Below are positions 20,811-49,484 of a DNA stretch of 64,000 nucleotides, in pieces. Within the stretch, counting starts at the first letter, position 1; each line of letters starts with the position of its first letter. Where the stretch lies: IMG/VR virus record IMGVR_UViG_3300031555_004271, positions 1-64,000 of that record. The stretch is one strand, 5' to 3'. Made by a program: the position numbers and the translations under genes. The notes under the pieces were generated by a model, which searched no databases, had not been told where the DNA came from, and saw nothing but the letters and a program-made list of their open reading frames with translations. Source of the DNA: a virus. Its lineage: Duplodnaviria > Caudoviricetes.

Positions 20811-22423
20811 ATGAAAACCGAATTTGTAAATCTAGAAAGTTTGTATGATCCAGAGAGAGTTATTACAAATCCACAACCACTAACAAAGGAAAAGACTTTC
20901 TCCGATGATGGTCTTTTCTCAGAGAAACTATTTGGTAAGAACAACAGTGACAATGACCTACTATCATATTCTTGTGAATGCGGTAAATACAAAGGAAAGT
21001 TCTTAAGAGGTTTTACTTGTGACGAATGTAAAACTGAAGTAAAGTTCCAAGAACCTATGTTAGAGAAGCTAGCATGGATTTCTCTAGGTAAGTATCACAT
21101 TATCAATCCCGTATTCTATTATGAAATTGCTAAACTAACATCTGGTGTTCAGAAGTTAAATGACATCATTTCTTATGATAAGAAAATTGACAAAGATGGT
21201 AACATTATTGATGATGAAAAAGGAAAGTTCAATAATTCTGGTCTAGTATTTTTCAAGGAGAATTTCTTTGAGGGCGAGAAGATTCTAGACTATCTATATG
21301 AGAATTCTAAATATAAGAACAAAGATACTGTGTATAATCTGTTACTAGAACATCAGGATAAGATCTTCCTACAACATATTCCAGTATACGACACTCTATT
21401 GAGACCTGCAAGTGTGACTTATAAGGACAAACCTGTGTTTAAGTTTGATGAGATCAATAACTCCTATAACTTCATCATCAAACTATCTAACATGATTAAC
21501 AAAGAATCTAAGGATTTTGATTTAGTTGTACTACCTAACTTGTTCAACATTCAGAATAAGATGATTCTAGTATTTAATAAGATTATCGAAAATCTTGCAG
21601 GTAAGAGTGGCTTTATCAGATCCTCAGTGCTCGGTTCTAGACTTAACTATAGCAGTCGTTGTGTTATTACACCTATGGAAGCTGGTTATGATGTAACCGA
21701 AATCGTATTCCCTTATCTAGCATTTGTTGAACTGTATTCCTTCCAGTTAATCAATATGTTAAGTAAGCTAAAGAAGATTTCTATGTTAGATGCACAAAGA
21801 ATTGTATATGAAGCACAGGCTAATTTCAATAGAGAGGTTTACAATCTATGTCTAGAATTGGTTAAGAAAACCAAACATGGATTGTTAGTAATAGGTATTA
21901 GAAACCCGACAATTGCAAGAGGATCTGTACAGGTACTTCGAATTGCTCATGTAAAGGAAGACATTTCAGATTTAACAACGTCAGTTCATAACTGTATCTT
22001 AGAGTTATGGGGTGGGGATTGAAATTTCGTAGTCGTCTGTGTTAGTAATAATACAGAGTATCATTTCAAGAATTGCTGGAAAACCTTAAAAGATGATCAG
22101 CATCCAGTTATATACTGGTTCAACGACTAATACCTTAAGAATTTAGGGTTAGTATGAAACATTCTTTATAGAATGAAGATATAGTCTGAACTCTATAGTT
22201 ATATAGAGTTTGTAAGTCTAATAAACTTACTTCAACATGTAAATAGTACGATGGTGACGTTGTTAACTTCTTCCCACTAATGGATAATGAATACAAGACT
22301 GAGTTCTACAGAGTTTTCAGTCCTGATAAGATGTTCATTAGTAACAATACTGGTGCATTTAATGCTAAACTTTCTATTGACCGTGATCAAGTTATTGGTA
22401 TTCATCAGTTTAATCTAGACTAA
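20811..22423 (+). CDS. rpoC: Non-virion RNA polymerase beta-prime N-terminal subunit (AR9 gp270-like), spliced: join(20811..22019,22247..22423), 461 aa
   Basis: FSDDGLFSEKLFG, CECG..CDEC zinc site, RLNYSSRCVITP, RNPT; splicing gives catalytic GGD|YDGDVVNF. Confidence 0.9.
22020..22246 (+). ncRNA. Group I intron (227 nt) inside the catalytic DxDGD motif
   Basis: IGS ucgua-Guc pairs the 3' exon uacga (P10) and 5' exon gaU (P1); P aauugcugga 22071, R guucaacgacua 22118, P8 cauucuuuauagaaug, S 22176, terminal G 22246. Confidence 0.9.
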
Positions 22424-22437
22424 TGAGGTCATTTCAC

Positions 22438-22920
22438 ATGAGTAATATTTACGAAGGTTTAATAGAAGGATTAGAAGAAGCTCTGGAATACGAAAAAGGT
22501 AATTTAGAGCTTCCTACTAAAATCCTAACTACAACAAAAAATAAGTACAATCTAAAACCTAGTGATATCAACAAGTTAGTCATATTAGATAGATCTCAGA
22601 TTGAAGAAAATCCTATGTTTTGGAGAAATGAAGTAATACAAGCGTATTGTATTACAAGAGAATTTGGTAGTCCTGCTGATTTTAGATTTAGTACAGAGAA
22701 TTCTGTATGGATTGGTATCTATGATGAAGATGCTAAAGCTTATAAGAACAAAGTAAGATATTTTTGCACTAGTTATGGTGGAATGTGTGGTTATAAGTTT
22801 AAGACATTCTTCAATGAAAAAGAGATAGATAACAACAATGATCTAAGTGCTCAGATATTCCTATTAGAGACAATAAATTCACTATTAGATTTAGGAATTT
22901 TAGGATTACCTAATAAGTAA
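22438..22920 (+). CDS. Hypothetical protein with an antitoxin-like N-terminal helix
   Basis: Start moved to MSNIYEGLIEGLEEALEYEKG behind gaggt. Confidence 0.7.
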   Translation: MSNIYEGLIEGLEEALEYEKGNLELPTKILTTTKNKYNLKPSDINKLVILDRSQIEENPMFWRNEVIQAYCITREFGSPADFRFSTENSVWIGIYDEDAKAYKNKVRYFCTSYGGMCGYKFKTFFNEKEIDNNNDLSAQIFLLETINSLLDLGILGLPNK

Positions 22921-22926
22921 AGTATA

Positions 22927-22970
22927 AAAAGGAAAGATTAACCAAATGTGTTAATCTTTCCTTATTTTTT
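22927..22970 (+). terminator. Intrinsic terminator
   Basis: aaggaaagattaac...gttaatctttcctt plus T run. Confidence 0.8.
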
Positions 22971-22971
22971 T

Positions 22972-22983
22972 AACAATACATTA
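22972..22983 (+). promoter_or_regulatory. Putative late promoter AACA-N6-TA
   Basis: aaca-atacat-ta. Confidence 0.6.
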
Positions 22984-23037
22984 GAAACTTTAAACCATTA
23001 AAATTTTTATTACAAAAAGAGAGTTGGTGAATATCAT

Positions 23038-23772
23038 ATGGATTTTGATATCAATTCTTTTCTTGAACTTCTTATTGGTAGCGTAAAAGGAAGAGAGATT
23101 CCTTTTATTTACTATATGATAATTCTGATAGCATTATTGACTTTTTTTGCTATCAGAGATTTTTTATTAGTAAAGAAAGAGGATTTAGAAGAAAATAGAA
23201 AATCAAAGATTTCTGATTTTACATTAGATATAGTAACATCTTTAGTATCAAGTGTTATTTGTCTATCTTTATCAGAAAATACTTTAGTTTCTGTTCTTCT
23301 TGGTATTTTAAGTGCTATTTATATAGTACCTAAAATATCACCTAAGATTATCAAAAAGAAAGATAGTGGAAAAGAAGATAAAAAAGCTATTGAAAATAAT
23401 GTAAATGTTGTAATTAACAATAACACTGACGATGAAAAAGAAAGTCTATTACCATCTTTCTATGATCCTAACAATTTGAAGCTACCTGAGAACATAACTT
23501 CTTATAATCAGCTCAATATCATAATGATTCTTGAGATGTATGGTTATATTTCTCCTAATCAGAAGTTCAAAATGATTACTCAGTCATTATTTGAAACTCC
23601 TGATGAACAAGTAGAAAAGCTATTAGAAATGTATGTTTTGAATAAAGACGAATTAGACGAAGCTAGAGCTATATTAAATCTAATAAAGCTAAACAATCGT
23701 TTAATCTCTAAAGAAGAAGCATTACATTGTATAATGGAAGTAAAAAATAAAGGAAATCAGAAAGGGGGGTAA
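23038..23772 (+). CDS. Membrane protein (holin-like, about 3 TM) with a soluble C-terminal domain
   Basis: Hydrophobic segments at about aa 21-40, 60-78 and 82-98, then a charged linker. Confidence 0.55.
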   Translation: MDFDINSFLELLIGSVKGREIPFIYYMIILIALLTFFAIRDFLLVKKEDLEENRKSKISDFTLDIVTSLVSSVICLSLSENTLVSVLLGILSAIYIVPKISPKIIKKKDSGKEDKKAIENNVNVVINNNTDDEKESLLPSFYDPNNLKLPENITSYNQLNIIMILEMYGYISPNQKFKMITQSLFETPDEQVEKLLEMYVLNKDELDEARAILNLIKLNNRLISKEEALHCIMEVKNKGNQKGG

Positions 23773-23780
23773 TTGTATAA

Positions 23781-24890
23781 ATGAGAAAAGTAAACGTTAG
23801 TGATATAGCTAAACATGAGGGAGAATTTCTGGCAAGAGACGTCTTTCATAATGGACAATTACTCGCCCAAAGTAACTCTGTAATTGATACATCACTTATT
23901 AATAGAATAACTGAATTAAGTGATCATATTTTCTATATTTTTACTTATAGTAGTGATACCTTAAATAACGACATTACAAATCTTATTACTGATGACATCT
24001 TAGACATCATTAAACATGAAATGGATTTGATACTTAAACGTTATTCACATTCTGGTATAGAAGATATAGATTTACTCAAAAAAATCATAGATATTTTCTT
24101 AAACAATATCCTAAGAGAGAAGTATTTCAAGAACTATCTAGAGAATTTGTTTATTCTAAACTCTAAACTATTTGGTCATTCAATCAGAGTTACTATTATA
24201 TCTCTTATTTTAGCTATAAAGGCTAATTTAAGTAGCGATCTAATCAATGGCATTGCTATTGGTAGTATCTTACATGAAATTGGTAGAAACAAGTTATTTA
24301 TAAAGTTTCCAATTTTAGCAGAAACTAATCATAGTTATAGTTTCGAAGAATATACTTTAATTAAAACAGTTCCAACGCTAGGTTATAATGAAGTTCTTAA
24401 TAACAAGCTAGTACCACCAGTTAGTAAAAAAATTATCTTAATGCATGATGTATGGGAGGACTTTGATAAGTCATATGATGAAGATAAAAAACTCCATATG
24501 TCATTTCCATCATACTATCAAGATAAAAAAATTGAAAGCGAACAAAAAGGTATAGCTGTAAATATTGTACAGGCTGCAAACTATTTTGATATGTTTGCTA
24601 TGAAGTTTAAGAATAGTTTCCCATCACTAGATGATCGTAAAAATATAAACAAGTTCTTTGTAAAAAATTCTAATAACATCTTCTCTAGAGAAGCATCTGA
24701 ACTCATAACAAAATATATCTCATACTTTTCAGTAGGTGAAAAAGTAACACTCTCTAATGGTAAAAAAGCAACTATAGAAAAACATACTAATGATCCAATG
24801 CATCCAATTGTAAGATTAAAAGACGATACTATACTAAATCTATCTGATGTTAAAGATAAGATTTCAATTGTTAGCATGATCAGCAAATAA
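23781..24890 (+). CDS. HD-GYP-like protein, degenerate active site
   Basis: FLARDVF..GQLL N-terminus, HSIRV, LHEIG, PTLGY, FSVGEKVTLSNG..A..HPIVR C-terminus. Confidence 0.75.
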   Translation: MRKVNVSDIAKHEGEFLARDVFHNGQLLAQSNSVIDTSLINRITELSDHIFYIFTYSSDTLNNDITNLITDDILDIIKHEMDLILKRYSHSGIEDIDLLKKIIDIFLNNILREKYFKNYLENLFILNSKLFGHSIRVTIISLILAIKANLSSDLINGIAIGSILHEIGRNKLFIKFPILAETNHSYSFEEYTLIKTVPTLGYNEVLNNKLVPPVSKKIILMHDVWEDFDKSYDEDKKLHMSFPSYYQDKKIESEQKGIAVNIVQAANYFDMFAMKFKNSFPSLDDRKNINKFFVKNSNNIFSREASELITKYISYFSVGEKVTLSNGKKATIEKHTNDPMHPIVRLKDDTILNLSDVKDKISIVSMISK

Positions 24891-24915
24891 AAAAGGAAAG
24901 AAGTGATAAGAATTA

Positions 24916-26178
24916 ATGAAAGGTATGTCAAAGAAAACAGTAATAACTTGTAATGTTTCTAACTCTATTTGCTCTCTCTTAAGTTCTATGACAGGCTTTG
25001 CTAAAGATCTTATCATGGATTTTTTCCCAGATGAATACTTTAAAAGTGTTTATGTTTCTACTGCATTAGCCTCATCTGAACAAGCTGGTGTAAACGATGA
25101 TGATATTCCATTAAAACATTATCCACAGTTATCAATAACGCCTTCATTTGTCCCGGATTATGATGATACTTATGGTGGTCCATATCCTACTTGGAGACGT
25201 GGAGTATTTCAAACATTTAATCACTATTCTGATCGATATGGTTATAAGAAAGTTTTTTACAATGATGAAGATAACCTTATAATCTCTGCTATACCTAATA
25301 GAATCAAATTTTCTTTTGATTACAAGATAAAAGTAGAAACTTATTTACAAAAGATGGATGTTGTCTATATGCTTAGACAAAAATTCCATAATAATGACAG
25401 AGTCTATTGGAATAACCAGTTATTAAAAGCTCAAATTCCAAATACTCTTATAAAAGCATTATCTAGTTGTAAAGATTTAGATATCAAAGATCCTCATGAC
25501 AGAGAGAAATTTTTAGACTATCTTAAAAATCATTCTCAAGGTCATATAGAACCAGTTATATATACTGGTAGTGGTAATCATACATTTGTCCATACCTATG
25601 CAGCTAATATTCTAGTAACTGTTGAAAATCCTCCAGATACTGATGAGAAAAATGTTAGTAAAGTCAATATGGCTAGTCATGAAGAGGTAGTAGAAATGAC
25701 TCTAAATATGGAACTATGGATTCCTTCAAACTATATGTTTGAATGTAATTCTTTACCAACAGGTAAGTATGAACCTACTTTAGAAGAAAGTAAGGTGTAC
25801 ATTTTTGGTAATGTTCCTCTTAGACCAAACAATACTTTCATGGATAAAACTCTTATCAAATGGCAAGAACTTCTAACTGAAGTAAATACTCCACTAGATA
25901 GTATAGACATGGACGATTTCTTACCTTTTGAAACTCTAGAATATGTAAATGAACAGTTAGAAAAAAGAGATTATGAATGTCTTGATTGTACTTTTATGTT
26001 CGTTTTATATAGAGATAGGAAAAAACTAGAATATGGTAAAGATTTTCTTGTTGATTGGAAAAACAAGAAAGTTGTTTTGGTTAACCCTTTATTTAATTAT
26101 AATCATTATATTGGTTGCTATGCTAATCAGGCGACCCTATATGAATGGAAAGAAATAAAGAGAAGAAAAGAAGAATAA
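24916..26178 (+). CDS. Hypothetical (probable virion structural) protein, 420 aa
   Basis: Long ORF in a late operon; no motif recognised. Confidence 0.7.
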   Translation: MKGMSKKTVITCNVSNSICSLLSSMTGFAKDLIMDFFPDEYFKSVYVSTALASSEQAGVNDDDIPLKHYPQLSITPSFVPDYDDTYGGPYPTWRRGVFQTFNHYSDRYGYKKVFYNDEDNLIISAIPNRIKFSFDYKIKVETYLQKMDVVYMLRQKFHNNDRVYWNNQLLKAQIPNTLIKALSSCKDLDIKDPHDREKFLDYLKNHSQGHIEPVIYTGSGNHTFVHTYAANILVTVENPPDTDEKNVSKVNMASHEEVVEMTLNMELWIPSNYMFECNSLPTGKYEPTLEESKVYIFGNVPLRPNNTFMDKTLIKWQELLTEVNTPLDSIDMDDFLPFETLEYVNEQLEKRDYECLDCTFMFVLYRDRKKLEYGKDFLVDWKNKKVVLVNPLFNYNHYIGCYANQATLYEWKEIKRRKEE

Positions 26179-26179
26179 A

Positions 26180-26215
26180 AAAATGGAGAATCACATTTAG
26201 TGATTCTCCATTTTT
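26180..26215. terminator. Bidirectional terminator
   Basis: aaaatggagaatcac...gtgattctccatttt. Confidence 0.85.
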
Positions 26216-26224
26216 AATTAAAGA

Positions 26225-26527
26225 TTAATCCTGAGCAGCAGTTTTACCATCATCTTCGCTCTGAACAGCAGTTACGTCAGTTAAAACTACTTCATAAACA
26301 GCACCCTGGACAGGAATTGCATTAACAGCAAATAAAGGACGATCTAAACCTAATGCATCATAAGTGGTAACACCAGCCTCAACCATAATTACTTTATGAC
26401 CTGCATCAGTAGCCTCAATTTTAGTTACCTTGCAAACTTTACCATCAAAACGAACTTTGTCACCAACTGCGACCCAGCCCTCTAGACCTAGAGTCTTAGA
26501 CTGAACTCTCTTAATTACCATAGCCAT
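26225..26527 (-). CDS. Small beta-rich late protein (probably structural)
   Basis: Start moved to MAMVIK behind gaaaggag; high-expression codon style. Confidence 0.7.
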   Translation of the reverse strand: MAMVIKRVQSKTLGLEGWVAVGDKVRFDGKVCKVTKIEATDAGHKVIMVEAGVTTYDALGLDRPLFAVNAIPVQGAVYEVVLTDVTAVQSEDDGKTAAQD

Positions 26528-26581
26528 AATTCTTTTATCTCCTTTCAAAATTTTATTTTTTAACTAATATATAATTAGTTT

Positions 26582-26596
26582 TATTAATATGTTGTT
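26582..26596 (-). promoter_or_regulatory. Putative late promoter(s) AACA-N6-TA
   Basis: Overlapping aaca-acatat-ta and aaca-tattaa-ta on the minus strand. Confidence 0.55.
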
Positions 26597-26732
26597 TGTT
26601 AAATATTCCAATTTTTCTTCATTTCCTTTTTAAGTTTTAATGCAACTATTAGATTTCTAACATTTATGATAAGTGCTATAACATTTATAATTAATGCGAC
26701 ATAACATAAAACTATAATAAAAATCCTTTCAT

Positions 26733-27794
26733 TTATATGAAATTTGACTTTAGCTTTATACGGTTTAACTTAGTTCCATAATCCTTTTCTATAGAATTAT
26801 AGAGTATTTTTACTCGATTACTACCCATAACTGAATTTTGTCTTTTCAAGTTATAATACAAACCCATATTTACATCAGCATCAGAATAGATAGTAATATC
26901 CATATTGAGAAATCCTAATCTAGCAAAATGGTTTACTATCAAACCATAACCTTTACCATTAACTGAAGTAAAGATTTTGTTTTCTGTATTTCCTTTATAG
27001 AAATACTCTCTAATACCAACTATATCAAATGGACCTTCTGACATTACTAGCTCTATCTTTGGTGTTAATAAATCTATCCTAGAACTACATGTATAAAATC
27101 TTTTTCCAGCTTGATTATTAAAAATGTTATACATATAGTATCGTTCATTTTTCTTACAATTAGGATCTATATTACGGAATATAATGTATGATTGATCGGA
27201 ACTTAAGAAACCTATATAGTTTCTAATAATGTTCTTTAGCATATAATCATTTAGATTTATATCCTCAATCTCATTTTGTTCTATAAACTGCTTAAATGAG
27301 AATATAACTTTATAATCTTGTATATATTGTTCTGGTTCTAGATCAAAACTATAGCGAGAGTTAATGTAGTCTAACTTTGCTTTTTCTCTAGAAGTTCCAT
27401 TAAAATCTGGTAGTACTAGATTCTCCTTTTTCAATAAAGACTTTACATCATAAGTACTGTCTGAAAATTTTTTATTTTTTCTTGTTCTTGTATTTTCCTT
27501 ATTGAATTTTTCCAATTCTCCCATGAGTACATAATCTAGAACATTTATATCCTTAAGAAAGTTTCTATCAACATTTCCAGAACTAGTACATTTCTGACAG
27601 TAATATGGAAAACAGTAAGCATTGTCTAATCCAATATACATATGAGTATGAAGTGCTGACTTTTGTGAATCTCCACAGTAACAACACCGTATCATCAATT
27701 CGTTCTTTGCACTGTTTAAATTAGCAGGATGTACATTTGATTGTATACTTTTAATAAGTCTTAATTTTAAGTCTTCATGTGTCATATCAATCAT
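26733..27794 (-). CDS. DNA primase (T4 gp61-like, Zn finger plus TOPRIM)
   Basis: RCCYCGDS...YCQKC, SEGPFD, YSDADV. Confidence 0.85.
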   Translation of the reverse strand: MIDMTHEDLKLRLIKSIQSNVHPANLNSAKNELMIRCCYCGDSQKSALHTHMYIGLDNAYCFPYYCQKCTSSGNVDRNFLKDINVLDYVLMGELEKFNKENTRTRKNKKFSDSTYDVKSLLKKENLVLPDFNGTSREKAKLDYINSRYSFDLEPEQYIQDYKVIFSFKQFIEQNEIEDINLNDYMLKNIIRNYIGFLSSDQSYIIFRNIDPNCKKNERYYMYNIFNNQAGKRFYTCSSRIDLLTPKIELVMSEGPFDIVGIREYFYKGNTENKIFTSVNGKGYGLIVNHFARLGFLNMDITIYSDADVNMGLYYNLKRQNSVMGSNRVKILYNSIEKDYGTKLNRIKLKSNFI

Positions 27795-28602
27795 CCATTT
27801 CTACTCTATATGATAAAAGTGACTCATATAGTATATTAGGAATCTTATCTTTATATTCATCAGCTACTTTCTTAATTAAAGCTTCTTTTTCTTCTTTATA
27901 CCATTTAAATGCAGTTATTTCATCTTTAAAGAATTTTGTTTTTTGTTTACCCAAAATATTTAATCCTGCTTGATAGCAATCGTATTTTTTAACATATTTT
28001 ACTCCAATTACACAATCTCCTCTAAACTTTTCATTTCTTATAAAAAGTTTATTAATTCTATCTGGAACAAAGCAACAATTATCACTATTGTAAATCTTAT
28101 TATGCTTAACTATAATATCTTTATCTAAACACATAGTTTCATTTTCTACAGTATAATAGTTTTTGTCAAACCAAAATGCAAAATTATCGTAATTAAGCCA
28201 TTCATCACTAACTTTACAATCTATATAAGTTGGAAGTTTCTTTAAAGACTTTTTATCATAACATCGCACTAACATATCACGCCATGTATCATAACATTTA
28301 CTATGTTTGCCATTTTCCATTATTAAATGGCTATGTTCTTTATAAAGACCTAAACATCCAACATCTAAGATAGTTTTTTGAAATGGATTCTTTACATTAT
28401 TTTCTAAAATATGATCTAGTCTCGTTATATACGTATATTCATTCTCATCTAAAAATTTAATTTCAACTTTTTTATTACTTTCGTAATTTACAATTTCAAA
28501 AGGTGTATTATTTATAGTCTTTATATTTTCTTTAAAATCATCTTTATTTAAAGGATTGAACGTTCGTCCAATATATTCATCTTTTAAATTAGTATAAAAC
28601 AT
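27787..28602 (-). CDS. Free-standing HNH homing endonuclease
   Basis: YDTWRDMLVRCY, CLDKDII..NKIYNSDNCCFVP..IN, AP2-like C-terminus. Confidence 0.8.
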   Translation of the reverse strand: MFYTNLKDEYIGRTFNPLNKDDFKENIKTINNTPFEIVNYESNKKVEIKFLDENEYTYITRLDHILENNVKNPFQKTILDVGCLGLYKEHSHLIMENGKHSKCYDTWRDMLVRCYDKKSLKKLPTYIDCKVSDEWLNYDNFAFWFDKNYYTVENETMCLDKDIIVKHNKIYNSDNCCFVPDRINKLFIRNEKFRGDCVIGVKYVKKYDCYQAGLNILGKQKTKFFKDEITAFKWYKEEKEALIKKVADEYKDKIPNILYESLLSYRVEMDD

Positions 28603-28635
28603 ATTACCGATTATTCTCCTTTCTAATCAAAAAAT

Positions 28636-28674
28636 TTTCCCTATAATTCTTAGTTTTTAAGAATTATAGGGAAA
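28636..28674 (-). terminator. Intrinsic terminator
   Basis: tttccctataattctt...aagaattatagggaaa. Confidence 0.8.
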
Positions 28675-28682
28675 TAAAATTT

Positions 28683-30179
28683 TTATATCAGTTTTATAAA
28701 GCTTAGAATTTCATCAGCAAGATCGTCCACTCTACAGATAATTTCTTCTGGTTCATACTCTTCAGTCGGATTGTACTCTTCAAAGGGGATTAGATAATTG
28801 TACTTACTAACAGAAATATTACCAACTAGTTTGATTATCAGTTTAGACTGAATAATGTTTTGACTAATGTAACTGTACTTATTACGAATTAGATCTTTAT
28901 AAGTTCTAGATTCAGTAATTCTTTCAAATAGTTTAGAATTCTTAGTTGTCATACGTTTTTCATTGAGTCTATCTGGGAGCGCTATGATATACTCAGCTAA
29001 ACAACTATAATCGTTCATCTTTAACCATTTGTAAAGTAGAATTACTAGATAGATATACTCATCACGATTACAATTATACAGATTACTATAAGAACCCATA
29101 TATTTTGCAAAGAATAGAAATAACAAGTTAGTCTGAAACTTATTAATGTGAATATGTTTTTTGTAATACTCAAATTCATCCTGAGAAATTCTAATTTTAA
29201 ACTCATTCTGAATATTTTCAATCTGATACTGAATGGAAAGCTGATTAATAATGATTTTACTCTCGTCTCGCTTACTCATATTAGCTTCCCATTTATCAAA
29301 CATTGTTAATCCTTCACGATCAACTTGATTCAGATTAACAGGTTTAAACGTAATCTTGTAGTTCTTAGAGAATTCAAATGTAATCTTACGTTTAATAACG
29401 ACATGGAATAGATTAATGATATTTCTATCACTAATAGTTTTAGGTAGAATACCAATTACTATGTCCTTCAAAAACTCCATAGTAATGACATTTACATCTT
29501 TGGATTTATTAGTTAGTAGATTCCAGATAGTCTTATCACTATATTGTGTGGATACAACACGAGAATAAACAAATCTGTGAATCTTGTTCATCATTTCAAT
29601 TTTTCCTTGATAAAGCTTTATAATAGCTTCAAAAACATCATATAAAGTATCATTTACCTCGTGTTTTCTTCTCTCGCAAAATTCAGTAATTAAAGGAATA
29701 GATAGTCGAATACTTTCTGCTGCTTTTAATAGGATTTTTACATGTTCATCTGTGAACTGTAATTCTTGGTTGATCTTCTTAGTCTTTTTAGTTTCCTCTG
29801 TCTGTTCATCAAGCTCTTCTACATAATTACCGTTTATATACTCACTAACAAAATTTTTCACTGTTTTGTTATTAATAACAGTAACTATATCATTGATCAT
29901 TTCTTCTTTAGTATATTCATTTTCTAGATTCTTTACTTTATATGCAATTTGTAGGTAAGGAAGTATAATTTTTTCATTACAAGTATTAAAAACTCGTTTT
30001 ATAGAATCTGTTATAAGATTATTGATGGTATAGTATGAACGTTTCTTTAATGAGAAATCATTCATGTGGGATATTCCATCTTCATTGAAAATCTTATCGA
30101 ATTCTATGATAACGAATTTTCCATCTTCATTTTCATGTATAAAATCATCATAGATAATCTTCGCATTTCCTATTTCCAA
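28683..30179 (-). CDS. Promoter-specificity (sigma-like) subunit of the non-virion RNAP, AR9 gp226 / phiKZ gp68-like
   Basis: Motifs recalled from AR9 gp226 in the same order: FDKIF..DGISHMNDFS..KRSYY, KKINQELQFTD, YSRV..T.YSD..IW, C-terminal D.LADEIL..I.LI. Confidence 0.75.
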   Translation of the reverse strand: MEIGNAKIIYDDFIHENEDGKFVIIEFDKIFNEDGISHMNDFSLKKRSYYTINNLITDSIKRVFNTCNEKIILPYLQIAYKVKNLENEYTKEEMINDIVTVINNKTVKNFVSEYINGNYVEELDEQTEETKKTKKINQELQFTDEHVKILLKAAESIRLSIPLITEFCERRKHEVNDTLYDVFEAIIKLYQGKIEMMNKIHRFVYSRVVSTQYSDKTIWNLLTNKSKDVNVITMEFLKDIVIGILPKTISDRNIINLFHVVIKRKITFEFSKNYKITFKPVNLNQVDREGLTMFDKWEANMSKRDESKIIINQLSIQYQIENIQNEFKIRISQDEFEYYKKHIHINKFQTNLLFLFFAKYMGSYSNLYNCNRDEYIYLVILLYKWLKMNDYSCLAEYIIALPDRLNEKRMTTKNSKLFERITESRTYKDLIRNKYSYISQNIIQSKLIIKLVGNISVSKYNYLIPFEEYNPTEEYEPEEIICRVDDLADEILSFIKLI

Positions 30180-30277
30180 TTTAGTCCACCTATCCTTCCA
30201 TTACTATTTACACTTTTGGTAAAAAATAAGTCTTGTTGACCTATTGATAATATATTTTTATAGAAAAGTTTAACGTT

Positions 30278-30532: not shown

Positions 30533-30566
30533 TTTTTAAATACCTCCATTTTTTATATTGCTATTT

Positions 30567-30581: not shown

Positions 30582-30607
30582 ATAACTAATTTTAAACTAT
30601 GACTTAA

Positions 30608-31743: not shown

Positions 31744-31750
31744 AAATTTA

Positions 31751-40414: not shown

Positions 40415-40430
40415 AAGGAGTTGAAATAAT

Positions 40431-41390: not shown

Positions 41391-41399
41391 ATTATAACA

Positions 41400-41429
41400 A
41401 ATGAGGATATCTGAAAGGATATCCTCATT
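41400..41429 (+). terminator. Intrinsic terminator
   Basis: aatgaggatatc-tgaaag-gatatcctcatt. Confidence 0.75.
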
Positions 41430-41461
41430 TAATTTTTCCCTAACAATTTTAATACATCTAT

Positions 41462-41473
41462 AACAAACTATTA
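41462..41473 (+). promoter_or_regulatory. Putative late promoter AACA-N6-TA
   Basis: aaca-aactat-ta. Confidence 0.6.
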
Positions 41474-41513
41474 ATAAGTCATTTATTCCAATAGAAGTAG
41501 GTGAAATTGTATA

Positions 41514-42089
41514 ATGAAACTAAATGAGAATCAAATTGAAATTCAATCAAAAACTATGTTTTTGAAAGATATAGCTTCAAATTTTTATAAAGAACTACCA
41601 TTTATCGATAAGTTCAATGCTACAGAAATGAATAAGATGAACTATGATTTACGTTTTGTCACTTTCAAAAAAATTGAAAGAATGATGAAAGTATCACAGT
41701 TCTACAATAGTCTATATTCAGTAAGTTTGCCTAACGAAACTAAACTCCATGAAGAAAAACTTAAACATATGAGATGGTTTGTCGATAAGTACAAAGATAC
41801 ACTAAACTATACTGATAGAATCAAATTTACATTTACACTTATAGATCCTGATTGTAACTATTCAGATGGCGTATATGAACAGTATAGTCAACTAAATTTC
41901 CAAAAGATTCTAGAAGATGGTAGAAAGATTATTAGATCCATTGCAGGAAACTTTAAGATTCTACATCAACACAATAACAGAACTATGGAAAAGTTTGAAA
42001 TATATGATGCTCCTAATAGTAATTTCGTATTTCGTTTATGTTACTATCCAAATAAGAAAGCTTGGATAGAAATCGAGAGTAAGGAGTGA
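41514..42089 (+). CDS. Hypothetical late protein (MKLNE start)
   Basis: aggtga RBS, late promoter. Confidence 0.75.
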   Translation: MKLNENQIEIQSKTMFLKDIASNFYKELPFIDKFNATEMNKMNYDLRFVTFKKIERMMKVSQFYNSLYSVSLPNETKLHEEKLKHMRWFVDKYKDTLNYTDRIKFTFTLIDPDCNYSDGVYEQYSQLNFQKILEDGRKIIRSIAGNFKILHQHNNRTMEKFEIYDAPNSNFVFRLCYYPNKKAWIEIESKE

Positions 42090-42096
42090 TTCATAT

Positions 42097-42864
42097 ATGG
42101 CTAGAACTATTTTTAAATGTCCATATTGTGATAATAGATATATAGCTAATGATAAGAAGGATTATCCAAAAGCTAAGTCTGCACTCTATACACATATGGA
42201 AACAACACATAAAGACAAATTAGGTGATTTATCACCTGCACAAGCTTACTTCAACTTTAAGTATAAAAAAACTCATGGTTCTTGTGTAATGTGTCACAAA
42301 GAGACTAAATGGAATGAATCTGTCGAACGATATGAACGATTCTGTTCTGAAAAATGTAAAGAAGCTTATCGTGAAATGTTTAAGCAGAGAATGATGAAGA
42401 AGTATGGTAAAGAACATTTGTTAGATGATCCTTCACAACAAAAAAAGATGCTCGAAAACCGTAGCATTTCTGGTAAGTATAAATGGAGTGATGGTAAATC
42501 AGAAACCAAGTATACTGGTAGTTATGAGAAAGAATTCTTAGAGTTCTTAGATGTGGTTATGAATATGTCTCCTACTGATGTATTTTCTCCAGCACCACAG
42601 ATTTTCCATTATGAATATGAAGGTAAAGACCATTTCTATATACCTGATTTCTATATTGCAACTTTAAATCTAATTGTTGAGATTAAAGATGGAGGTTCAA
42701 ATCCTAATAACCATCAGAAAATTCAACAAGTTGATAAAGCTAAAGAAAAGTTAAAAGATACTGTAATGAAAAAGCAAAAAGAACACAATTACATTAAAGT
42801 GATTGATAAAGATTACAGTATTTTCTTAAACTATCTGTTAGAACTAAAGTATAAAGAAAATTAA
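42097..42864 (+). CDS. Zn-finger plus TnsA-like PD-(D/E)xK nuclease (T4 gp4 head-completion-like)
   Basis: CPYC...H...H; CVMC..CSEKC; YTGSYEKEFL, FYIPDFYI, IVEIKDG. Confidence 0.7.
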   Translation: MARTIFKCPYCDNRYIANDKKDYPKAKSALYTHMETTHKDKLGDLSPAQAYFNFKYKKTHGSCVMCHKETKWNESVERYERFCSEKCKEAYREMFKQRMMKKYGKEHLLDDPSQQKKMLENRSISGKYKWSDGKSETKYTGSYEKEFLEFLDVVMNMSPTDVFSPAPQIFHYEYEGKDHFYIPDFYIATLNLIVEIKDGGSNPNNHQKIQQVDKAKEKLKDTVMKKQKEHNYIKVIDKDYSIFLNYLLELKYKEN

Positions 42865-42881
42865 AAGAGGTGAAATTAAAA

Positions 42882-43490
42882 ATGATCCTTAATGAAAAAC
42901 AAATAGAAATGTATAATGATTGTATTTTCTTAAATGAAGGTTTATTTAAATCTAGAGAAGAAAGACGACAGGAAAAAGAAAGAAAGCGTCAAGAAAAGGA
43001 AAGATTAAATAAATGTAAACAGGAAGCTTATAATCAAGCAAAGAATAATGCATTGAAAATGTGTCCTTCTCTACAATCAACTTGTAAGACAGCTATAACT
43101 GGTTTCAATAAACCAAAAATGCCATACCTGAAGATTGATACAGATATTAAAAAAATTAGTCAATGGATGTATCGTGGAGATAGTCCAAGTTATGAACATG
43201 GTGAGTATACGTTATATTTTTTAATACTAACTGTACCACACCCATATGCAGATTCAATTAAAGGATATGAAAAAGATGAAGATGGTGAAAATATCGGTTA
43301 TGCAAATAATTTAAAAAATTATTTAGCCTATATCCATAATTCATTAGAAAAACGAATAGGTAATAAAAATTTTAAAATAGATGTTTTTAGAGAACATGAA
43401 CATGGTGAAAAAGAATTTTATATATATGGAATTGATTTTAGAGAAGAATACAATAAAATCTTTGAATCATTAAAGAATAAGAATAATTAA
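42882..43490 (+). CDS. Probable internal head protein (LNE motifs)
   Basis: MILNEKQIE...FLNEGLF. Confidence 0.6.
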   Translation: MILNEKQIEMYNDCIFLNEGLFKSREERRQEKERKRQEKERLNKCKQEAYNQAKNNALKMCPSLQSTCKTAITGFNKPKMPYLKIDTDIKKISQWMYRGDSPSYEHGEYTLYFLILTVPHPYADSIKGYEKDEDGENIGYANNLKNYLAYIHNSLEKRIGNKNFKIDVFREHEHGEKEFYIYGIDFREEYNKIFESLKNKNN

Positions 43491-43510
43491 AGTACAATGA
43501 AAATAAAAAA

Positions 43511-43546
43511 AAAAGAGATATGGTTACAAAAACCATATCTCTTTTT
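43511..43546. terminator. Bidirectional terminator
   Basis: aaaagagatatggtt-acaaa-aaccatatctctttt. Confidence 0.85.
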
Positions 43547-43549
43547 TAC

Positions 43550-44197
43550 TTAGATTACTTCACCAGGTTTAGCACAAGATGCTAACATATCATAGATTCT
43601 ATCATAGGTTTCCTTAGAAATTTTACCCATAATAGAATACATATTGTAGCAGATACTATTTAGATTTCTTAGGTCAATATTTGCATCATATTCAATGTAA
43701 CCATTCATGAAAAGAATATGCATCATGAACTTATAGTTTTCGAAATCAATCTTTCCATTTCTGACATTTCTAGTAAATAGACCTACTAAGAATTGAGTAT
43801 CATCATCCAATGTTTGCATTTTACTAGTTACATTAGAATTGATATATTCTACAATTTGTTTAGTTTTATATTCTGTACTATTCAGACTACTAAGTTCATC
43901 ATATCTCTGTTTAAAAGCTTCTGTATTAAGCTTTTCCTGAATTGCATTGAAAGGAATATGATACCAATTATCGATAAGAACTTTATCAACTTTAGTTCCA
44001 TCAGGTCTGATAACACAGTTGAATTCTGCTACATACTTACCTACAGAAACTTCATCTTTACCCTCAATAGTAAACAGTACAGAATCACCATTTTCTACAG
44101 GAATCGTCTTGTCAAAACATTCTCCTGTAATAGTAATTCCATTGTTTTCTTCTTCAGGATTCATCATATCCTTTTCTAAATCTTGAGCGTGAGGCAT
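43550..44197 (-). CDS. Hypothetical protein, 215 aa
   Basis: aaggag RBS. Confidence 0.8.
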   Translation of the reverse strand: MPHAQDLEKDMMNPEEENNGITITGECFDKTIPVENGDSVLFTIEGKDEVSVGKYVAEFNCVIRPDGTKVDKVLIDNWYHIPFNAIQEKLNTEAFKQRYDELSSLNSTEYKTKQIVEYINSNVTSKMQTLDDDTQFLVGLFTRNVRNGKIDFENYKFMMHILFMNGYIEYDANIDLRNLNSICYNMYSIMGKISKETYDRIYDMLASCAKPGEVI

Positions 44198-44209
44198 CTT
44201 TATTCTCCT

Positions 44210-45784
44210 TTACTTTTGATTTAAAACATTGTTGATTCTTTCAAATATAGCTTCACTGACTTTTGTATTAAAGTCACCATTTAGCATTTCTGTAAAGATT
44301 TCTTTCTTCATAGACAGAATATCAGAATCTTCTATGATAGAATTAATTCTATCTAGAATTTTTACATTTAGATTCTTTAATTCGCCTTTTATCATACTAG
44401 TAAGGATTTCATTCTTAACTAATTTCAAATCCTCATCAGCTTTATGTCTTTCAGAACCAAGCCATCTACACATTTCAAAATTAGGATTACCAGATTTACA
44501 AACTGCAATACAGAAATTGTTACTTATAAACCAATCATTATAATTGATTTTTTTAATTTCCATTAATTGATCCTTAAAATACTTGAGCATTTCTTTAATA
44601 GAAAAATATTTATCTCTATCATGTAATAAGAAATCTACAAGATTTTCATCTTCAATATACTTACTAAACTTGACTACAAATTCCTTAAATCTCTTTTTAT
44701 CATTTCTACTAAAGTCTATAAACACATCTCTAGTAAATTTACTCCAATCGATTTGTCTACAATAAGTTTCATAGAAATCATTAGAATATCTACCGTAAAG
44801 AACATTAGGATTTATTGAGAAACTATCCCAGAGTATGACTTCTGGATTATGAGAATTTTTTTCTATGAATTTTTCAGTAAAATTTACATTTTGATTGATG
44901 TATATCCTATATCTTTTGAACATACTCTTTTGTTTGAATCTTAGAATAAGATTCTCAGTTATATTTTGAGTTCTAAAGATAGTAGTAAGAATATTATCAA
45001 ATACATAATCTCTTCGATTTTTCTCTAAATCTTTACATTTCTTTACTGTATTGAGAATTGTAAACAAATGATCCTCATCGAAATCATGTGAATCTAAAAG
45101 AGTTTCTAATAAATGACTAGTAGACAAACTAAACTTGTAGATATCACTAAATTCTTTACCTGAACTTAAACTTTCAATCATAAACTGTAAACATTCTTTA
45201 TCATAGGTCTGTTTCTTATTACCATAGAAGGTAGATTCATCATAAAAGTACTTAAAGTACTTCTTTACATGCTTAGTCTCTAATGGAATATTTTTACTAA
45301 GAATAGTCTTCCAATTTAGTTTGTCAGCATATTTCTCAATAATCTCATCGTGTTTCTCAAAATCCAATCTATTAGAAAGTTCACTCGGATACAGTTCAGC
45401 AACTTTGAAAATATCTACAAAAGACATAGTTATAGAATTGGTATCAATGATTCTTAAGAGGAATCTAAAATCGATAATAGGAAGATTTAAAATAAGATCC
45501 TTATAGGAGGTTCTTCTACAATCTCCATAACAGTCATAGTATAGGTATGTACCACTTAAAGCCTCATCTTCACTACGACTACAATTAGATTTAACCCTTT
45601 CACCAGTTTCTTCATCGATATGATAATAAATACATAATAGATCATGTACATTTGTCAGATCTACTAAACCTTTATAATAATCGTTTTTAATCATTGCATA
45701 GAACTTTCTTTCATCGTTGTCTTCAAATGTGAAGGTGTAAAAACCATCATCATCGTATAGTCTTCTTTTACGCATTTTCATCAC
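44210..45784 (-). CDS. Tryptophan-repeat-like helical protein, 524 aa
   Basis: EKYADKLNWKTI, ILWD, QIDWSKF repeats as in 12483..14408. Confidence 0.65.
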   Translation of the reverse strand: MMKMRKRRLYDDDGFYTFTFEDNDERKFYAMIKNDYYKGLVDLTNVHDLLCIYYHIDEETGERVKSNCSRSEDEALSGTYLYYDCYGDCRRTSYKDLILNLPIIDFRFLLRIIDTNSITMSFVDIFKVAELYPSELSNRLDFEKHDEIIEKYADKLNWKTILSKNIPLETKHVKKYFKYFYDESTFYGNKKQTYDKECLQFMIESLSSGKEFSDIYKFSLSTSHLLETLLDSHDFDEDHLFTILNTVKKCKDLEKNRRDYVFDNILTTIFRTQNITENLILRFKQKSMFKRYRIYINQNVNFTEKFIEKNSHNPEVILWDSFSINPNVLYGRYSNDFYETYCRQIDWSKFTRDVFIDFSRNDKKRFKEFVVKFSKYIEDENLVDFLLHDRDKYFSIKEMLKYFKDQLMEIKKINYNDWFISNNFCIAVCKSGNPNFEMCRWLGSERHKADEDLKLVKNEILTSMIKGELKNLNVKILDRINSIIEDSDILSMKKEIFTEMLNGDFNTKVSEAIFERINNVLNQK

Positions 45785-45983
45785 CTTTATGTTTTAGATT
45801 TCTTTCAACTTCGTTTAAATAGATTTGATCGATACTGACAAATTCTTGCCTAGTATCTTTTTTTATTCTATATGTTATGTTTGACTTAGCTTTTTGAATA
45901 GATGGTGCAGTAGTGTATGCTTTATAGTTTCCGATAAAACCACTGTTACTATATACGGGTCCGTCATACAAGTATGTTTTCAT
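45768..45983 (-). CDS. Hypothetical early protein
   Basis: Start moved to MKTYLY behind aaaaggag. Confidence 0.7.
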   Translation of the reverse strand: MKTYLYDGPVYSNSGFIGNYKAYTTAPSIQKAKSNITYRIKKDTRQEFVSIDQIYLNEVERNLKHKGDENA

Positions 45984-46025
45984 GTTGTCATTCTCCTTTT
46001 TAGTATTTATCATTGGTTTCTACAA

Positions 46026-46040
46026 TTAGTATATATATTT
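46026..46040 (-). promoter_or_regulatory. Putative early promoter
   Basis: minus aaatatatatactaa, identical to 20433-20447. Confidence 0.6.
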
Positions 46041-46080
46041 AAAAACCAATTAGGTACTTTTTATAGAAAAAACATGGAAA

Positions 46081-46092
46081 AACAACCTTTTA
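46081..46092 (+). promoter_or_regulatory. Putative late promoter AACA-N6-TA
   Basis: aaca-accttt-ta. Confidence 0.55.
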
Positions 46093-46116
46093 ATTTCCAT
46101 TAAAGAAGGTGTATTT

Positions 46117-46596
46117 ATGAGTTTCATAGACAAACTAGCCATTTTTATATCTAGAACTGCCAAAGTAGCCAATATAGTTTCAAAAGGACTTTCCATCTCA
46201 GATGAAGTTATAAAAGAATTCAGTAAAAGTGGTACTGATCCTAGATTATCCAGACCTGTTAGAGAAATAATGGAAGTATTAGATACATACAATATCCGTT
46301 ATGAAACTGAAAAGAAGTTTGATGATTGTAGAAACATCCGTTGTTTACCATTTGATTTTTGCATTTATACTAACAACAGATTTTTCTTAATAGAGTATGA
46401 TGGATTGCAACACTATGAACCTTGTTTTGGATTAAATGAAGAACAGAAATTAGAGAACTTTAATCGTACTAAATACAATGATAGTATAAAAGAACAGTAT
46501 TGTCGGGATCATAACATTACACTTCATAGAATTAGGTATGATGAAGATCATGTAACAAAAATTACAGCTATTCTAAGAAGACATAGAATGATATAG
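46117..46596 (+). CDS. Vsr/DUF559-like PD-(D/E)xK endonuclease
   Basis: EKKFDDC...LPFDF, IEYDGLQHY, D..K..YC..HNI.L.RI.Y. Confidence 0.8.
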   Translation: MSFIDKLAIFISRTAKVANIVSKGLSISDEVIKEFSKSGTDPRLSRPVREIMEVLDTYNIRYETEKKFDDCRNIRCLPFDFCIYTNNRFFLIEYDGLQHYEPCFGLNEEQKLENFNRTKYNDSIKEQYCRDHNITLHRIRYDEDHVTKITAILRRHRMI

Positions 46597-46630
46597 GATT
46601 AAGACTTTTAAAGTCTTAATCCTATTATTT
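46593..46630. terminator. Bidirectional terminator
   Basis: ataggattaagact-tttaa-agtcttaatcctat. Confidence 0.8.
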
Positions 46631-47425
46631 TTATTCATCATCTTCAAATACTACTGTTAAGTAAATAGTACCACTTTCGCCAATAGCATATGTTTCATCT
46701 TCAATATCTGTAGTATCTACAATTTTTTCAATAAAACCTAATTCTTCAACTAGATCAAATGTGTCCTTATTAATCTTATAGAACATTAGAGTATCTAATT
46801 CAACTACAGTTATAGAATTATCAATTTCCTCTTCTTGAGTCTCATCTAGATTAGTTATAATAGTTTCTTCATCATCTATAGGAGTATATGATTGATCGTC
46901 TTCATTGTAAACAACAGCAATCGTATCATTCTCAATACTAGTTGTGCTTTCTACAATACTATCGATATTCAAATCAGTTAGTTCATCATCTAACATTTGA
47001 TCGATACTACTCTCATCGTATATAACAGCTTCTTTAGAAAGTTGATGTTTATCAGGTATATATTGGAATTCATTAGCAATCTTCTTATATAGTTCAGCAG
47101 TGAAAGAATCCAAACCTTCAGAAGATTCTTTAGAAGCATTTTTCTCCTTAAATGCAAAGTCTGTAATGTTTTTCTTCATATCAGCTTTTTGCTTTATATA
47201 ATTCAGTTTTGCAGTTTTAAGGGATATCAAGTTACTAGTTTGATCTTTAACGAATGATAGACTTCCTCTAGCTTGTGATCCTTTTATAGCATCAAAATGT
47301 CCTTTTAATTCACTGTATAAACTATCTAACTCATCGATCTCTTTATTGATCATTTCCATTTCATCATCAAAAAGACTCTTATCATACATTGATTCTTGTT
47401 TCTTTTCATTAGTCACTTCTATCAA
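46631..47425 (-). CDS. Hypothetical late protein, coiled-coil plus acidic
   Basis: gaaaggag RBS, late promoter at 47452. Confidence 0.8.
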   Translation of the reverse strand: MIEVTNEKKQESMYDKSLFDDEMEMINKEIDELDSLYSELKGHFDAIKGSQARGSLSFVKDQTSNLISLKTAKLNYIKQKADMKKNITDFAFKEKNASKESSEGLDSFTAELYKKIANEFQYIPDKHQLSKEAVIYDESSIDQMLDDELTDLNIDSIVESTTSIENDTIAVVYNEDDQSYTPIDDEETIITNLDETQEEEIDNSITVVELDTLMFYKINKDTFDLVEELGFIEKIVDTTDIEDETYAIGESGTIYLTVVFEDDE

Positions 47426-47451
47426 CTCCTTTCAAAAAAAGGTAAAAATTT

Positions 47452-47463
47452 TATAGATTTGTT
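47452..47463 (-). promoter_or_regulatory. Putative late promoter AACA-N6-TA
   Basis: minus aaca-aatcta-ta. Confidence 0.55.
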
Positions 47464-47490
47464 ATTCTCTATACTTTTCTGTATAAAGAA

Positions 47491-47522
47491 ATAAGAGAAG
47501 AGGGGTTACCTCTTCTCTTATT
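47491..47522 (-). terminator. Intrinsic terminator
   Basis: ataagagaagagg...cctcttctcttat. Confidence 0.8.
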
Positions 47523-47532
47523 ATAATTTTTA

Positions 47533-47616
47533 TCACAAAGGTCTCTCACTTACATAATTTACATCTAAAATATCTTGAGTACGGTTTGTTTTCATATATA
47601 GGGATGGTGTATACAT
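47533..47616 (-). CDS. 27-aa peptide MYTPSLYMKTNRTQDILDVNYVSERPL
   Basis: aaaggag RBS 9 nt upstream, early promoter and terminator flanking; below the track cutoff. Confidence 0.55.
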   Translation of the reverse strand: MYTPSLYMKTNRTQDILDVNYVSERPL

Positions 47617-47702
47617 TTTAAAACACTCCTTTGTAAACTAATGTTCCTATAGAGTTAAAGAACTAGTTTACGAATTTTGAAAGGTTAACTCTTAGTAACT
47701 CT

Positions 47703-47736
47703 TTAATGATATATAGATATAAAGACTAATAATGCG
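47703..47736 (-). promoter_or_regulatory. Putative early promoter with a CGCATT box
   Basis: minus cgcatt-N15-tatatatcattaa. Confidence 0.6.
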
Positions 47737-47748
47737 TAAAGATTCTTC

Positions 47749-49484
47749 TTAATCTCTAGTTAGAGTGTATAATGTCTGAATACCCTCATTACGAAGAACT
47801 CTAGTAGTTTTACCTGTAACGTCTAGTAGGTATTTAGATGAGTTAATCAACTTTTCACATTCAGCATTTGCTTCTTGTGAGTAGACAGATCTTAGTGAAA
47901 CCGTGTCACCGTCAAACAATAATCTTATGCTTTAGAATTGTTAATTCTAAAATGCTTTGTATTTCAATACAAAGATGAGACTATATCTTTATATTCTCAT
48001 TTTCACTATACTTATAGTGTAAATTAGTCGTTGAACTAGTATAATTCTAGCTGCTGATTATCCTTTAGGATTTTCCAGCAATTAAAGAACTTTATAGCGA
48101 ACTTTTATGGTTAATCCGCTCCCAATGCTTCCAACATGGTATTATGAGGTATAATGGTGTCAATATAGTTGATATTTTCATCTATAACAGGACTATCCTC
48201 ACTCCTAGTAATTACAGGATACTCATCATAGTATTTATTGGCAATCTCAATCTGTTGAGTCTTATAAGTAGTCATTATCTTGATTCTACTAGGGTAAATA
48301 CTTTGATAGTTTTCAATAGGAAATCGAGTAACATATACATGTTTATCTTTACATACTCTAGTAGCGACAATATAGATAAGATCTAGTAGAGTAAACTGTC
48401 TTTTAAGCTCGTCTTGGAATAGATTTAATGGAGTATCTTTTACACTACCATCATCCATCTTAACAGGAACTAAAATAGGGTCTAGTCTGTTATCAGGAGA
48501 TTTGATGTAAAGATTCAACATTCCCTTGATCTTCTCAGTTGTAAACTTGGACATTGGATTCACCAGTGTATAGTACTTTCCATTAGCAGCTTTAAGTTCA
48601 CGTACTGAAGCAAAAGTTTCTCTAGCAAAATTATCAATCTCATATTGGAAGAAAGGATAGAAAAGGTTACATAAATGGGATAAAGGAATACCAGTATATG
48701 TAAACTTTACTAACTGATCTGCAGGTTTATTGGAATTAACACGACCTGCTGAGATAACACCTCTAGTACTATAGTCCACTGTCTTGCCGAGCAGACTATT
48801 CTTGAGAAGTCCACTCTTACCCTTAATATAGCTAGTCAAGTATTCATAAATCTCAACTAATTGTTTCTGTAATCTACTTTCAGTAATATGACCCATAAAA
48901 TCAAAGTCACTATTAGAACTAGCTAGGGAAATTAGATTAGCATACATTTTGTTAATCTCATCTTCAGAAACTTTACCATGGTCTAATTTCTGTATATTAG
49001 AATCTCGGTAGGATGCAGGAATTACCAACCAGTACTTGACAAAGATCTCATCAATATCTAACTTGTTAAGTAAGTCTATAGTTCTATCACGTTCACCAGA
49101 TCCAGATTTTTTGAACTTTAGTTTCTTAAAGTTGTCATACAACCAATTAATACCAGTATTACCATTTACATTGTCGGCAACTAACTCGCCTTTCTCATTA
49201 ATTGAGAAATAACCACTACCATCAATGACTCTGACAAAGTTTCTATTCATCTTAGTAAGTCTCTGGTATAATAAAGGATGTAGAAAATGTCCTTTTAAAT
49301 CTATATATCCGAATAAGGTTCTTCTATCATAACTACCAACTTGACCAAAGATTCTATAAGAAAGTAGACCGTCATCAGTAGGATACCATCCTTGATCGAA
49401 TCTAATTGGATTAGTAACTTCCTGTAAATTGTTTACTTTTATGAATTTTTCTAGGTTACAAATATCTATCTTCAAAGGAAACAT
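47749..49484 (-). CDS. rpoC: Virion RNA polymerase beta-prime N-terminal subunit, spliced: join(48114..49484,47749..47916), 512 aa
   Basis: DDGLLSYRIFG, KGKSGLLK..LLGKTVDYSTRGVIS, VTRFP; splicing gives LGAD|FDGDTVS. Confidence 0.9.
47917..48113 (-). ncRNA. Group I intron (197 nt) inside the catalytic DxDGD motif, no P8 evident
   Basis: P1 gcggaU/Guucgc, P 48075-83, Q 48051-59, R 48025-36, S 47978-89, terminal G 47917. Confidence 0.9.

Follow-up and report, generated by a model that had tools for sequence, protein, structure and literature searches.

ORF-less group I introns at the same catalytic-motif codon of both RNA polymerase beta' genes in an AR9-related phage: probably independent arrivals at an insertion hot spot

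Two genes for the N-terminal part of an RNA polymerase (RNAP) beta' subunit (beta'-N), one of the non-virion (nv) and one of the virion (v) type, lie in the first 64 kb of the IMG/VR virus record IMGVR_UViG_3300031555_004271. This 64-kb stretch is the window analyzed here; the whole record (G000) is 85.8 kb long, with a CheckV completeness of ~33%. Each gene is interrupted by a small group I intron without an open reading frame (ORF). On the plus strand, nv exon 1 (20811..22019; 403 amino acids (aa) ending in ...LELWGGD) runs into a TGA codon, the start of the 227-nt intron A (22020..22246), and exon 2 (22247..22423) continues with YDGDVVNFF...NLD and a stop. On the minus strand, v exon 1 (48114..49484; 457 aa ending in ...LEALGAD) runs into a TAA codon, the start of the 197-nt intron B (47917..48113), and exon 2 (47749..47916) encodes FDGDTVSL...TRD and a stop. 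Both insertions are in phase 0 and at the homologous phosphodiester bond of the NADFDGD motif, where the GAU codon for the first Asp meets the F/Y codon. They split the motif as GGD^YDGD in nv and GAD^FDGD in v (the caret marks the insertion point), so that one of the three Mg-binding aspartates is encoded upstream of the intron and two downstream.

Megablast of both beta'-N genes against GenBank phages gave no match, and the GenBank relatives were found at the protein level only, with 35-45% aa identity to AR9 g270 and to AR9 g145 and Goe21 rpoC1. The best phage matches of the nv protein are phiR1-37 g274 and AR9 g270, the latter annotated as the N-terminus of the non-virion RNAP beta' subunit. 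Exon 1 of the v gene is 45% identical to Goe21 rpoC1 and AR9 g145, the latter annotated as a virion RNAP subunit. The nv and v assignments follow from this homology. The two paralogs are ~24% identical to each other.

Intronless alleles that continue across both sites fix the exact junctions. The nv homolog P0005 (461 aa, 96% identical to nv exon 1) reads uninterrupted through ...LELWGGDYDGDVVNFF..., and its last 58 residues are 100% identical to nv exon 2. Removal of the introns gives the exact reading frame of the intronless homologs, which are P0005 and the alleles L009 and L010 for nv, and G002, the L015 contig, P0031 and P0032 for v; GADFDGD is contiguous in all four of the latter. The coordinates and junctions given in the original prediction, which was made from the sequence alone, are exact according to the translations, the Rfam matches and the intronless alleles, and the in-frame stop as the first intron codon, TGA in A and TAA in B, is confirmed.

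An Infernal scan with the Rfam model RF00028 (Intron_gpI), whose curated gathering score is 50 bits, matched intron A at 54.9 bits (E=5e-13) and intron B at 46.2 bits (E=2e-10), the latter below the gathering score yet highly significant. The shortfall of B coincides with an absent P8; the 59-position P8 segment of the model aligns to 0 nt. A cmscan of the whole window, at the gathering threshold or at E<=0.01, reported neither of these introns, nor a third one (intron C) described below; they surface only in sub-regions of ~900 nt or in a genome-level Rfam search. The whole-window miss is a filter artefact, not absence. Long-window Rfam annotation would overlook such introns, and the beta' genes would then be called as truncated proteins.

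The hallmarks of group I splice sites are present in both introns: a U at position -1 and a terminal (omega) G, with A ending in ...AAAUAG^ and B in ...UUAUUG^. Each has its own exon-matched internal guide sequence (IGS), as predicted. That of A, 5'-UCGUAGUC (22027..22034, plus strand), reads UCGUA^GUC and pairs continuously with the ligated exons GAU^UACGA. Its P1 has 5 bp (GAU^UG with UAGUC, by pair check) and its P10, read by eye, is UCGUA/UACGA. The guide of B, 5'-AAAGUUCGCU (48096..48105, minus strand), reads AAA^GUUCGCU and pairs with AGCGGAU^UUU; P1 has 7 bp (AGCGGAU/GUUCGCU, by pair check, and also found in the minimum free energy (MFE) fold) and P10, by eye, is AAA/UUU. The conserved core P3-P4-P5-P6-P7, with the P3/P7 pseudoknot and J8/7, is present in both cmscan alignments. 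P3, P4, P6 and P7.1 were confirmed pair by pair in both introns, and P7 (GACUA/UAGUC) was read directly; P5 of intron A is weak. P3 covaries, as UUUCA/UGAAA in A, GUUCU/AGAAU in B and AUUCU/AGAAU in the related intron B2. One P7.1-type hairpin lies between the P7 5' strand and the P3 3' strand in each intron, ACCUUAA/UUAGGGU in A and CACUAU/AUAGUG in B. By this hairpin both would be IA2-like. MFE folds yield P1/P2, P4-P6, P7.1, P9 and P9.1, and P8 in A only, with z-scores of -2.5 and -3.65. On the coding strand, neither intron contains an ORF of >=40 aa, so that neither encodes an endonuclease, again as predicted.

The two introns differ in whole helices. Intron A has the set P1, P2, P3-P9 and P9.1, including a 9-bp P2 and a 6-bp P8 (CAUUCU/AGAAUG). 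Intron B has neither P2 nor P8; only 3 nt (AUA) separate its P3 3' strand from AAGAUAUAGUC. An alternative in which the hairpin after P7 serves as P8 was rejected: the P3 pairing it needs is not kept in B2, and (G/A)UUCU/AGAAU is. The same P8-less layout, in which P7 is followed by one hairpin, the P3' strand and directly J8/7, was seen in no fewer than four further introns, which interrupt different genes of related contigs (L027 1533-1733; L015 ~797-2068; L037; and the second portal intron of L025, on the minus strand with its R element at ~1590 in reverse-complement coordinates). This recurrence makes the P8-less form look like a functional subclass, not the product of decay.

If A and B act as their structures suggest, each pre-mRNA would self-splice in a guanosine-initiated reaction guided by the intron's own IGS. 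The unspliced message would stop at the first intron codon and yield a beta'-N fragment lacking two catalytic aspartates, and removal of each intron would restore a subunit with all three. Both beta'-N subunits, hence both RNAPs, would by inference need splicing, as the original prediction proposed and as is already implied for AR9. Splicing is preferred over the view that the insertions stay in the message, leaving the genes broken or each beta'-N made as two polypeptides. In favor of the latter, an in-frame TTG does stand immediately before the v-gene FDGD exon. This view is nevertheless very improbable given the strong covariance-model matches, the guide pairings to both exons, the terminal G, the want of a ribosome-binding site or start codon for nv exon 2, and the conservation of both exons, in frame, in intron-plus and intron-minus alleles. 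We know of no precedent for a split inside the metal-binding loop, which also counts against it.

Both introns vary among close relatives. Intron A is absent from the nv genes of P0005 (96% aa identity), G001 (319.6 kb, 89%) and G002 (299 kb, 88%), and among the relatives and clusters searched it was found in the window's record only. No relative was confirmed when metagenome contigs were searched with the alignment of nv proteins, and a DNA pattern for the 5' end of A had no match in these contigs. Besides B itself in G000, a B-type intron (83% sequence identity, 178 bits) occupies the same site in G001, G003 and G004; such an intron is absent from G002, the L015 contig, P0031 and P0032. Presence/absence polymorphism at the same site among close relatives, one mark of mobile introns, is thus found for both A and B; another, an intron-encoded homing endonuclease, is found in neither.

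The v gene of a further relative, L014 (IMG/VR UViG_3300029305_002869), is 88% identical in aa sequence to that of the window and has an endonuclease-bearing intron of ~1.3 kb at DFDG^D. G001 (L012) and L014 come from the same metagenome, 3300029305, and with ~88-89% aa identity they carry alternative introns in the v motif, an ORF-less one at the site of B (site 0) and an endonuclease-bearing one 9 nt downstream (+9). Alternative introns at one motif in one sample suggest competition for the locus. Further introns, each with an ORF of >300 aa, interrupt the v beta'-N gene elsewhere in G002 (L040/L041, 138777-141694) and in L015 (797-2068), one near residue 390, the region of the AR9 group II intron, and another at residue 234.

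The original prediction noted two strings, gttcaacgacta and aagatatagtct, that the cores of A and B share. The strings are there, but the record has exact copies of both in a further two introns. One is intron C (15327..15862, plus strand), a group I intron with the same R/S core in a homolog of AR9 g264, a virion RNAP beta' C-terminal-type piece. The other is intron D (81581-82247 of the record), in a probable large-terminase gene called by eye from its translation; Pfam gave no match for this gene. The sequences GTTCAACGACTA and AAGATATAGTCT, exact in all four introns, are the R and S elements and lie near the Rfam consensus. Since the shared core is identical in C and D, it is not specific to A and B and does not mark them as a pair.

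Similarity rankings together with helix presence or absence point the same way, and they are the measure that sequences of ~200 nt with non-alignable hairpins allow. A and B are 71% identical over the 135-nt core. In a score matrix of the 3' block, A scores 38 with B, 46 with the G001 portal-gene intron discussed below, 42 with C and 41 with D. BLAST with A ranks two G002 introns first (76.8 and 74.0 bits) and then B (69.7 bits); BLAST with B ranks the same-site introns of G001, G003 and G004 first, then introns of other genes, and then A. By these comparisons A and B are different subtypes of one intron family. RF00028 matches number 11 and 8 in complete related genomes, and C-site orthologous introns lie at the same position in G001 and G002; judged by its sequences, the window's phage lineage is intron-rich and draws on one intron family.

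The stretch coding for DxDGD is interrupted at several points. An AR9 nv intron lies at DYDG^D, 9 nt downstream of the window's site, with a P1 of GACGGU/GCCGUC, and an AR9 v intron lies at DYD^GD (+6). The v introns of Madawaska, phiR1-37 and L014 are at DFDG^D (+9); the v genes of BpSp and LPJP1 have no motif intron. A census of protein ends in 90 v-homolog clusters suggests interruption at site 0 in nine, at +9 in 11, at +6 in one and at -6 in two, some of the site-0 stops belonging to proteins only 32-36% identical. Among 24 nv clusters, two stop at +9. Site-0 occupancy in distant lineages (P0079, P0107) is read from protein ends only, and a search for related loci gave just an intronless 62% relative for P0079 and none for P0107. 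All observed sites are in phase 0 after a T-ending codon, because group I chemistry needs a U at -1 (U.G wobble). This leaves about four usable positions (-6, 0, +6 and +9), and identical placement is then a coincidence of roughly 1 in 4 once both genes carry a motif intron.

The endonuclease-bearing +6/+9 introns (L001, L003, L014, L049 and L051) form a subfamily of their own with an IGS of GCCGUC or GCCAUC, residing in nv in AR9 and in v elsewhere. One of them appears unannotated: g178 of phiR1-37 (L051, AJ972879.2 ~123430-124700) is given as a single coding sequence of 473 aa ending in GGDFDGKF and a stop, and a group I intron containing g179 is seen at DFDG^D, with R/S elements and a terminal G before GAT ACA....

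The reading that fits these data best is separate arrival of A and B at one site within a known insertion hot spot, and the sequence evidence makes this probable. A and B would be mobile or recently lost elements, as their presence varies among phages at 85-96% aa identity. The motif-coding stretch would act as a recurrent landing and retention zone, because the motif is invariant and imprecise intron loss is not tolerated. Such sites are usually explained by the preference of endonucleases for invariant sequence and by the lethality of an inexact intron loss from a catalytic codon (reviewed in PMC12908238). Both the mode of arrival and retention by selection are what we infer. ORF-less copies may have spread by recombination during co-infection, by a trans-acting nuclease or by reverse splicing.

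The original prediction had favored a common history. In one version a single element passed from one paralog to the other, either by ectopic homing with the help of an endonuclease or by reverse splicing, and then diverged and re-fitted its guide. The shared insertion point and the IA2-like make-up with identical R/S elements speak for it, and so does a case 9 nt downstream: the subfamily with the IGS GCCGUC and the core CGACUAUCGAAA...GAGUAGAGUA sits at DxDG^D, within nv in AR9 and within v in L014, Madawaska and phiR1-37. This is evidence that cross-paralog spread has a precedent at the neighboring +9 site, not that it gave rise to the pair A and B. These two differ by the whole helices P2 and P8, and their likeness is no greater than that of either to introns of unrelated genes; the strings identical in both are the family consensus, and the 5' third of A matches the portal intron instead. 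The exon sequences upstream of the site are GGGGAU in nv and AGCGGAU in v, such that one guide sequence could not serve both. Crossing between the paralogs is therefore unlikely as the source of the pair. In the other version the intron was already in the gene before the nv/v duplication, a view for which the shared position alone speaks. None of the nv genes of close relatives (96%, 89% and 88% aa identity) has intron A, nor does any other nv homolog cluster, and B is likewise missing from close relatives. Because both introns are polymorphic at the strain level while the paralogs are ~24% identical, the sequences effectively exclude an origin before the split.

A different donor for A is possible, though not favored. 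Nucleotides 11-64 of A, spanning the guide core UAGUC, P2, P3 and P4, are 87% identical to a 1.1-kb intron in a G001 gene that is a portal gene by Pfam match; this intron carries a VSR/DUF559-type endonuclease. The shared stretch UAGUCGUCU...AUUUCAAGAAUUGCUGGAAAA agrees at 48/54 nt and includes two compensatory pairs in P2. Guide core (UAGUC) and target pentamer (GAU^UA) are the same in the two introns, and so is the helix set (P2, P7.1, P8, P9 and P9.1), with similar L9.1 loops. A pattern scan of IMG/VR with the IGS-P2 region of A returned portal-type introns only, and the portal type occurs in three IMG/VR contigs. Intron A may thus stem from the portal-gene intron lineage by loss of the endonuclease ORF and transfer into a non-homologous gene, which it would have entered at GAU^UA through guide-directed reverse splicing or illegitimate recombination. 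The 3' two-thirds of A, however, are only ~74% identical to the portal intron, no better than to several other introns, and a mosaic origin by recombination among introns would explain the data equally well. The shared stretch is compatible with transfer in either direction. Since a genome contains any 5-nt target hundreds of times, landing in the catalytic motif would still need selection or a nuclease. Still more tentatively, A may have moved between the portal and nv beta'-N genes, in either direction, through the 5-nt guide core UAGUC recognizing GAU^UA, and ORF-less site-0 introns may persist by splitting the DNA target of the DxDG^D homing endonucleases found among phages of the same population. 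If true, both polymerase genes would be immune to attack by intron endonucleases during co-infection.

Several points weigh against independent arrival or against the picture of two working introns on which it builds. With short sequences and a conserved core, the similarity rankings are no rigorous argument against remote shared ancestry of A and B or against recombination among introns. The estimate of 1 in 4 is rough and presumes equal site use. The portal gene is not in the window's record, which covers ~33% of the genome, and donor introns of the same phage lie outside view. Intron B scores below the gathering threshold and lacks P8, normally part of the catalytic domain, so that it may not be autonomous. 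Splicing of both A and B is itself deduced from sequence. Independent arrival at a hot spot is still preferred, as it accommodates the strain-level polymorphism, the helix differences and the repeated use of the motif.

A candidate for the nuclease named among the routes of spread is encoded near the v gene. Tblastn with five intron-encoded homing endonucleases against the window hit 46249-46593 (E 1e-19 to 6e-6), which is the VSR/DUF559-type nuclease-like C-terminal part of a free-standing 159-aa ORF (46117..46596, plus strand). Pfam gives only a weak DUF5889 match for this ORF. It lies 1.15 kb from v beta'-N and is without the N-terminal zinc-finger repeats of the intron-encoded endonucleases of related phages. 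As a lead only, its product is a candidate trans-acting nuclease.

Introns C and D each carry an insertion of 340-460 nt after P6, which contains a small ORF on the opposite strand and a terminator-like hairpin. The antisense ORF of C (15453-15611, minus strand) has 52 aa; that of D (~81714-82010, minus strand) has 98 aa and is membrane-like. The insertion is missing from the orthologous C-site introns of G001 and G002.

In broader terms, the catalytic-motif codons of jumbo-phage RNAP genes appear to be a battleground for self-splicing introns, with four or more insertion points inside ~15 nt. The motif is occupied now by an ORF-less mini-intron, now by an endonuclease-bearing one, and in the v gene both states occur in near-identical phages of a single metagenome. 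The idea of one intron common to both paralogs, however appealing, is not supported by the analysis. Two leads remain: ectopic transposition via a 5-nt guide sequence, and protection from the homing endonucleases of competitors.

Among known systems, the T4 nrdB-type and Twort orf142 introns are small ORF-less phage group I introns of subgroup IA2. Like A and B they are compact, reside in essential phage genes, and have a hairpin between P7 and P3' and an early stop codon; unlike intron B they have P8. We know of no intron of this type at the RNAP site of the window. In PhiPA3, a group I intron in gp210, the vRNAP beta gene, lies directly after conserved aspartates; it shows what makes sites of this kind targets and what such an intron can do when phages compete (Birkholz et al. 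2024, PMC11620839). That intron differs from A and B in that it is in beta rather than beta', encodes an active HNH nickase and belongs to a chimallivirus, not to the AR9 group (PMC11620839).

Closer cases are the v beta'-N introns of the Staphylococcus phage Madawaska, the Yersinia phage phiR1-37 and L014, which interrupt the same catalytic motif. Unlike A and B they sit at +9, are ~1.2-1.6 kb long with a homing-endonuclease gene, and use a guide, GCCGUC or GCCAUC, that pairs with GAC/GAU-GGU. The closest is AR9 (KU878088). There too both beta'-N paralogs of one jumbo phage are interrupted inside the DxDGD stretch, making both RNAPs splicing dependent, and the R/S core elements GUUCAACGACUA and AGAUAUAGUC are identical to those of the window. 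The original prediction was right that AR9-like phages have RNAP introns: the AR9 annotation joins two pieces for g270 and three for g145, and in g145 a group II intron is present as well, near residue 394. The AR9 motif introns differ from A and B in lying 9 nt (nv) and 6 nt (v) downstream, in carrying homing-endonuclease genes (HNH and Hef-like), and in belonging to another subfamily with a long P7.1/P7.2 region. They are also related to each other, with 79% identity over 174 nt. Introns of the AR9 type in RNAP genes are thus known; what the window adds is a new position and an ORF-less form.

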